DNA of 64,000 nucleotides, from assembly GCF_003334405.1 (NCBI RefSeq), contig NZ_QOWM01000004.1. One strand, given 5' to 3'. The notes beneath the pieces are model-generated. The model was given only the letters and a program-made list of their open reading frames with translations. It did not search any database and was not told the DNA's origin. Shown here piece after piece: positions 42,212 through 42,324 of the stretch. How positions within the stretch are numbered: the first letter of the stretch is position 1; the number at the start of each line of letters is the position of its first letter. The DNA is from Escherichia coli (GTDB taxonomy: Bacteria > Pseudomonadota > Gammaproteobacteria > Enterobacterales > Enterobacteriaceae). A program made the translations under genes and the position numbers.

Positions 42212-42290
42212 AAAAAACCCATCAACCTTGAACCGAAATGGCGGGGTTGATGGGCTCCACAAAATGGGGACATCAAAGAAAAGCAGTGGC
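42212..42290 (-). ncRNA. rybB: Small regulatory RNA RybB (Hfq-dependent, envelope-stress regulon)
   Basis: Minus-strand sequence GCCACTGCTTTTCTTTGATGTCCCCATTTTGTGGAGCCCATCAACCCCGCCATTTCGGTTCAAGGTTGATGGGTTTTTT matches RybB, including the 3' terminator hairpin and U6. Confidence 0.9.
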
Positions 42291-42295
42291 ACTAA

Positions 42296-42324
42296 TTAAG
42301 ACTGATGCCCTGCGGAAAAGTTCT
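42296..42324 (-). promoter_or_regulatory. SigmaE-type promoter of rybB (-35 GAACTT at 42318-42323, -10 GTCTTA at 42297-42302)
   Basis: Minus-strand GAACTT-N15-GTCTTA directly upstream of the rybB 5' end. Confidence 0.6.

Follow-up and report, generated by a model that had tools for sequence, protein, structure and literature searches.

The rcdA–ybjL intergenic region of an Escherichia coli genome segment matches the sigmaE-dependent small RNA gene rybB

Introduction

RybB (RF00110, b4417) supplies the repressor arm of the envelope-stress response under sigmaE and serves as a model for seed pairing; this biology is important, and all of it is established. It is an Hfq-associated RNA whose 5' end seeds on many omp mRNAs and which feeds back on sigmaE (PMC1804206, PMC6694218). 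The gene is reported to be strictly sigmaE-dependent (PMC1804206; PMC6694218), and PMC6694218 credits the sigmaE control of E. coli rybB to Johansen 2006 and Thompson 2007. In MG1655, ompC is regulated by RybB, and the sponges FtsO, RbsZ, and 3'ETS-leuZ control RybB (PMC7815308). Two other E. coli RNAs, MicA and MicL, have the same sigmaE promoter class and the same place in the repressor arm of the envelope-stress response, although their sequences, seeds, and loci are unrelated to those of RybB; micA lies between luxS and gshA, and MicL targets lpp. MicA shares the targets ompA, ompW, lamB, and tsx with RybB (PMC6694218), and micA gives the second-highest RpoE SELEX peak, after rybB (PMC5493296). 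MicV and VrrA of Vibrio cholerae are sigmaE-activated, Hfq-dependent repressors of outer-membrane-protein mRNAs like RybB, and MicV carries a RybB-like conserved seed domain (PMC6694218). However, these two RNAs come from another genus, differ in overall sequence, and were not matched by RF00110 here.

The 3' end of rybB is also a prophage attachment site, which is already published. At cyaR, ssrA, and tRNA genes, as at rybB, recombination by P2-like integrases takes place in the 3' end and leaves the gene restored. PMC3032704 lists both rybB and cyaR among the P2-type insertion sites of E. coli W, B, and Crooks, and it gives the 'rybB ncRNA' site as empty in K-12. The rybB site has further been described as defence hotspot #29, occupied by Felsduovirus prophages (PMC10121019), and a Klebsiella island lies 'precisely within' rybB (PMC4048246).

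Here we analysed one E. coli window, meaning the whole stretch of 64,000 nucleotides. An earlier note, made from the letters alone, had read positions 42212-42324 as a full-length RybB sequence, a known envelope-stress sRNA, with its terminator and a GAACTT-N15-GTCTTA promoter, and had said that ORF-based annotation would miss it. Compared with described RybB, the locus is identical in sequence, position, sigmaE promoter, seed, Hfq-type terminator, and U-tail, and we found no difference. The analysis itself shows which gene this is, how its promoter is arranged and conserved, how the terminator folds and covaries, that the seed is complementary to targets, and the synteny; that RybB depends on sigmaE and Hfq, represses its targets, and feeds back on sigmaE is taken from the literature.

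Results and discussion

Identity and annotation of the locus

Read on the minus strand, the region consists of upstream promoter DNA, cAGAACTTTTCCGCAGGGCATCAGTCTTAATTAGT, followed by the RNA, GCCACTGCTTTTCTTTGATGTCCCCATTTTGTGGAGCCCATCAACCCCGCCATTTCGGTTCAAGGTTGATGGGTTTTTT, and then by g as the next base. The RNA gene is 79 nt long and runs from window position 42290 to 42212.

42212..42290, minus strand: rybB gene (79-nt RybB sRNA); +1 is the G at 42290 and the last terminator U is 42212

A search of the whole window with Rfam 15, the covariance-model check that the earlier note had proposed, gave a RybB (RF00110) match of 105.3 bits against a gathering score of 40 (E 1.3e-20). The match lies at 42287..42209 on the minus strand and covers model positions 1-79 of 79, so it is not truncated; the model starts at RybB RNA nt 4. 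Over the 1501 bp around rybB, the window has 100% identity with MG1655, the E. coli K-12 strain, as well as with other K-12 derivatives. After coordinate conversion by the offset from rcdA, the curated ncRNA rybB (b4417) of NC_000913.3, at 887979..888057(-), corresponds exactly to window 42212..42290. In NC_000913.3 the gene lies between rcdA (b0846) and ybjL (b0847), which is the position that the earlier note had given. The full-length claim thus stands on both a full-model match and identity to the curated, known envelope-stress sRNA of E. coli K-12. A transcript of about 80 nt has been detected in E. coli, as cited in PMC1804206, and PMC7815308 has northern blots of RybB in MG1655 derivatives.

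We conclude that the minus strand of window 42212..42290 is almost certainly the rybB gene of E. coli K-12, and nothing substantive stands against this reading. The interpretation given in the earlier note was borne out in all its parts. The gene is a textbook one that was already known here and is not new. Its value in this window is only that of a positive control, in which the reading of raw sequence came within one base of the curated annotation. The intergenic region is widespread: of 5426 complete E. coli genomes, 5419 have it with a coverage of at least 80%. Outside E. coli, the RF00110 threshold was passed by sequences of Proteus, Providencia, Xenorhabdus, a Sodalis relative, Yersinia, Serratia, and Salmonella, with scores of 69-107 bits.

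The remark on ORF-based annotation also proved right. None of 30 sampled PGAP-annotated RefSeq records that contain the rybB intergenic region has a feature under it (30/30 blank), and the PGAP record of another MG1655 assembly has no rybB feature, whereas the curated NC_000913.3 does carry it. Thousands of E. coli genomes with automatic PGAP annotation are still blank at rybB.

Other Rfam matches above threshold were seen elsewhere in the window. These are naRNA4/CssrE at 54985..55065 (+) with 75.5 bits, and two copies of ES036/CssrF at 53963..54005 (+) and 11870..11912 (-) with 42.2 and 41.6 bits. They look like REP/BIME-type repeat-derived elements, not dedicated sRNA genes.

The sigmaE promoter

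An exact search of the window for GAACTT-N15-GTCTTA found a single site, at 42297..42323 on the minus strand, which is the promoter that the earlier note had described. In the usual sigmaE notation, the same site is GAACTT-N16-TCTTA. The -35 hexamer GAACTT occupies 42323..42318 and GTCTTA occupies 42302..42297, with 15 nt between them, and the discriminator ATTAGT spans the 6 nt from the end of the -10 box to the +1 G at 42290. The interval 42212-42324 thus covers everything from the RNA 3' end to the single base that precedes the -35 hexamer. The distances of 16 nt from GAACTT to TCTTA and 6 nt to +1 fit a spacing of about 16 nt and a discriminator of 5-6 nt, the optimal sigmaE values reportedly being those of Rhodius et al. 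2006.

42297..42302, minus strand: sigmaE -10 element GTCTTA, positions -12..-7, by exact pattern match
42315..42324, minus strand: sigmaE -35 element aGAACTTTTc, with GAACTT at positions -33..-28, by exact pattern match
42335..42344, minus strand: conserved A/T tract AAATTTTTTT, positions -54..-45

The consensus sigmaE boxes are GGAACTTTT and GTCAAA, and the boxes are conserved upstream of rybB (PMC1804206). The -35 box AGAACTTTT at 42324..42316 agrees with the consensus given there at 8 of 9 positions. The -10 box GTCTTA agrees at 4 of 6 and departs from GTCAAA at two positions. By itself, the motif is weak evidence, since it is not above chance in 64 kb: the exact promoter string with at most one mismatch is expected 0.21 times per window, and the looser GAACTT-N15-17-TCNNA, with an expectation of 1.09 per window, turns up in 65 of 100 shuffles. 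The promoter is convincing because of its placement relative to +1 and its phylogenetic conservation, not because of the motif alone.

For the cross-species comparison, we scanned a genome collection with RybB nt 3-23 as an exact pattern and obtained 120 loci from different enterobacterial species, 113 of which had enough flank for a promoter alignment anchored at +1. The region upstream of +1 aligns without gaps in all 113 loci. GAACTTT at -33..-27 is 98-100% conserved, and AGTC at -13..-10 is 95-100% conserved (A-13 in 95%; G-12, T-11, and C-10 in 100%). A-7 and T-1 are each 100% conserved. The four -10 bases shared with the consensus (G, T, C, and the last A) are therefore invariant, and the two middle positions vary (T/A/G). 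The spacer at -25..-14 is variable, with 0.05-0.64 bits and mostly below 0.4, and positions -44..-36 also stay below 0.4 bits. Further upstream, T at -48..-45 is 86-96% conserved, also in loci without an upstream ybjL, and the A/T tract at -54..-45 may be UP-element-like.

These observations agree with published experiments on the sigmaE type of the promoter. In a Salmonella rpoE deletion strain, the activity of the rybB promoter fell to background (PMC1804206), and genomic SELEX with the RpoE holoenzyme placed the highest peak of the genome, at 55-fold, on the rybB promoter (PMC5493296). A housekeeping (sigma70) promoter for rybB was considered and rejected, as our promoter scan predicted no sigma70-like promoter in the rybB intergenic region.

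RNA structure and terminator

The predicted fold of RybB (80 nt; -25.2 kcal/mol, z -3.17) combines a 12-bp terminator hairpin with a 5' half that is mostly open.

42212..42254, minus strand: Rho-independent terminator, with a 10-bp core stem, a 17-nt loop region containing a small inner helix, and a U6 tail
42254..42245 with 42227..42218, minus strand: core stem C37-C46/G64-G73, by fold and covariation
42217..42212, minus strand: U6 tail, by sequence
42257..42265, minus strand: single-stranded A/U-rich linker before the terminator, nt 26-34, AUUUUGUGG

In an alignment of 37 distinct RybB sequences, 7 of the 10 stem pairs show compensatory changes and 95.9% of the cells are paired, against 19-45% in controls with the stem slid along the alignment. 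The double change between CCCAUCAACC/GGUUGAUGGG and CCCGAUAGUC/GACUAUCGGG is one example. RNAalifold recovered the same terminator helix as the fold. The built-in terminator scan, which accepts only loops of 3-8 nt, missed the RybB terminator for this reason. Folding and covariation show that the terminator, which the earlier note had claimed, is real. On the plus strand, a hairpin also forms at rybB but no U-tract follows it, and we therefore make no claim of rcdA termination or of bidirectional termination.

The linker has an invariant UUG at nt 29-31, with indels of 1-3 nt just upstream in the RybB alignment. It is likely part of an Hfq-binding module together with the terminator region. 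Hfq dependence of RybB has been reported, with lower RybB levels in an hfq deletion strain (PMC7815308; PMC1804206).

The alignment also bears on the idea that the region is conserved as a short coding ORF. The mechanical ORF list does contain two such frames, one of 43 aa at 42276..42145 (-) and one of 45 aa at 42238..42375 (+). However, in the species alignments both the loop and RNA nt 26-28 have indels of 1, 2, and 3 nt that would shift the frame, and what is conserved looks like a seed and a covarying stem, not like codons. The 43-aa frame begins within the RNA and meets no stop codon ahead of the terminator, and the 45-aa frame runs antisense through the unconstrained promoter spacer. 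The frame-shifting indels and the missing in-RNA stop codon led us to reject coding potential for both ORFs, and we regard a coding origin of the conservation as having a negligible probability compared with an RNA gene.

Seed region and targets

The conserved 5' end GCCACUGCUUUUCUUUGAUGUCCCC, counted from +1, is present at 42290..42266. In the minimum free energy fold, the RybB 5' end is unpaired except for a weak 4-bp helix.

42275..42290, minus strand: 5' seed or target-recognition domain, RNA nt 1-16, GCCACUGCUUUUCUUU, by conservation, complementarity, and literature

Since the search pattern fixed nt 3-23, their conservation does not count as independent evidence; the bases on either side that the pattern left free, nt 1-2 and 24-25, are invariant in the 113 loci. 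A seed role of the RybB 5' end has been described (PMC6694218). We computed duplexes of RybB nt 1-16 with the 5' regions of MG1655 ompC, ompW, and ompA, and with 60 control 5' regions from the window.

ompC: -17.4 kcal/mol, target site -50..-41, RybB nt 1-9
ompA: -17.5 kcal/mol, target site +20..+33, RybB nt 1-13
ompW: -15.5 kcal/mol, target site +5..+21, RybB nt 1-16

Control 5' regions were as good as ompC, ompA, and ompW in 0/60, 0/60, and 2/60 cases, respectively, and shuffled seeds in 4/500, 0/500, and 8/500. The complementarity is consistent with seed pairing to these three mRNAs and is no proof of it. Separately, the 5' region of the ORF at 21645..23624 (+) gave a duplex of -17.1 kcal/mol with RybB nt 1-9, close to the ompC level; with 60 regions tested, chance may give such a score. 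To our knowledge, this ORF is not a known RybB target.

Combined with the literature, the features suggest the following course of events. Upon envelope stress, free sigmaE would bring RNA polymerase to AGAACTTTT-N-GTCTTA at 42324..42297, and transcription would start at G42290. The intrinsic terminator, with its stem at 42254..42218 and its U-tail at 42217..42212, would end transcription and release an RNA of 79 nt. Hfq would bind and stabilise RybB through the 3' hairpin with its U-tail and the A/U-rich linker. The single-stranded 5' end GCCACUGCUUUUCUUU would then pair with many outer-membrane-protein mRNAs (ompC, ompA, ompW, and others) at short complementary sites, either in the 5' UTR or early in the coding region, by which translation would be blocked and mRNA decay would become faster. 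With fewer unfolded porins, sigmaE activity would be subject to negative feedback.

Phage attachment site at the rybB 3' end

The 3' end of the gene overlaps the attachment site mentioned above.

42196..42222, unstranded: empty attB for P2-like (Felsduovirus) prophages, the 27-nt attL/attR repeat
42209..42222, unstranded: identical att core AACAAAAAACCCAT, which contains the last 11 nt of rybB

The 1501-bp query is covered in one place in 4292 of 5423 genomes. In the remaining ~1130 of the 5423, the match breaks at window 42196/42197 or 42209, and the site is occupied by a P2-like prophage or its remnant in ~21% of complete E. coli genomes. Strain L6-21, for example, has an integrase-CI-ogr remnant between rcdA and rybB, and strain CPF6 has the tail/gpD/ogr end of a P2-like prophage in the same place. 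The junctions share a 27-nt direct repeat that equals window 42196..42222. In the occupied locus, RybB is rebuilt intact and again scores 105.3 bits.

Almost all intergenic variation within E. coli falls in the ~13 nt after the U-tail (window 42198..42211). This block, RTTGCCTGAAATT, is conserved across genera, and conservation then falls to zero. It is the phage-side arm of the att core. The window, as K-12, carries a diverged block; the attB arms compare as GTTATCTAAAACT in K-12 and GTTGCCTGAAATT in the consensus. The site in the window differs from occupied sRNA and tRNA attachment sites in being empty, and its 3' arm is 4 positions off the cross-genus consensus. The block may be kept across genera by recurrent integration of P2-like phages. 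The diverged K-12 arm might lower the efficiency of integration.

The frequent occupation, the att core made of the last 11 nt of rybB and the next ~13 nt, and the cross-genus conservation of the block after the U-tail raise the question of whether the element is conserved chiefly as a P2-like attB and not as a regulator. This seems extremely improbable. The att site covers only 42196..42222, whereas conservation of the covarying stem, seed, and promoter boxes reaches ~100 nt further, with the architecture of a transcribed sRNA. An intact RybB after integration is expected if the phage exploits a conserved gene. The attachment-site role coexists with the sRNA gene.

The record NZ_CP148327.1 (labelled plasmid pZ1323HEC0475-2, 42,418-bp circular) carries chromosomal ybjL-ybjM-grxA-ybjC-nfsA-rimK and a P2-like ogr/gpD/tail end, joined at the rybB att site. 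It could be a misassembly, an aberrant excision, or a packaging of flanking DNA. The rybB intergenic query had 6 further matches on plasmid-labelled records.

Neighboring genes and ybjL read-through

The flanking genes were placed from the annotation of the identical MG1655 sequence.

41656..42192, plus strand: rcdA (TetR-family regulator), convergent with rybB
42367..44052, minus strand: ybjL (transporter), on the same strand as rybB and immediately upstream

The rcdA stop codon is 19 nt from the rybB 3' end, and the ybjL stop codon lies 76 nt before the rybB +1. The two sides differ across the species loci. The rcdA side is variable, and ybjL and rybB are linked in all 86 loci that have an upstream ybjL homologue, with 67-115 nt from stop codon to +1. 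About 20 loci of Morganellaceae, Xenorhabdus, and Sodalis type (among them Proteus and Providencia) have no upstream ybjL, yet both promoter and RNA are kept there.

A GC-rich hairpin with the A/T tract as its loop was seen in 72 of 118 loci; it ends at -28..-40 and touches or overlaps the rybB -35 box. This hairpin is likely the ybjL terminator. It is found in ~60% of other enterobacterial loci and was absent from Escherichia, Salmonella, and Citrobacter among the 118 loci folded. A terminator scan (loop 3-8 nt) also reported no terminator-like site between the ybjL stop codon and rybB in the window. Because neither the hairpin in Escherichia nor a terminator-like site before rybB was found, read-through of ybjL transcripts into rybB, stopping at the rybB terminator, is plausible in the window. 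We also looked for conserved structure across the promoter in the hypothetical read-through RNA. The fold has a z of -3.79 in the window and a median z of -1.0 over 117 loci; the folds differ between genera and none is conserved in Escherichia.

The same strand, the short distance, and the lack of a terminator would also fit the segment being only the 3' UTR and terminator of ybjL, with the sRNA as a processed or read-through mRNA end. We consider this very unlikely. The sigmaE promoter is in register with +1 in 113 loci, and the ~20 without ybjL still score as RybB; because these loci keep promoter and RNA, RybB is not merely the ybjL 3' UTR. The strongest RpoE SELEX peak lies at the rybB promoter (PMC5493296), and promoter fusions are rpoE-dependent (PMC1804206). 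Read-through from ybjL could add to the sigmaE-driven RNA of the rybB gene but cannot replace it.

A broader reading is that ybjL lost its own terminator in Escherichia, Salmonella, and Citrobacter and gained a RybB-containing 3' UTR, and that phages have kept the ~13-nt block; as a whole, we think this rather doubtful. If true, ybjL transcription would pass through the promoter of rybB and stop only at its terminator, giving a sigmaE-independent 3' UTR that contains RybB. Such a 3' UTR could be processed into active RybB, or its transcription could occlude the sigmaE promoter. The read-through with its promoter-terminator overlap and the evolution of the att arm are the only readings with any novelty here, and they are unlikely to be important. 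In strain EC24 (NZ_CM169477.1), an IS1 element lies within rcdA, next to rybB.
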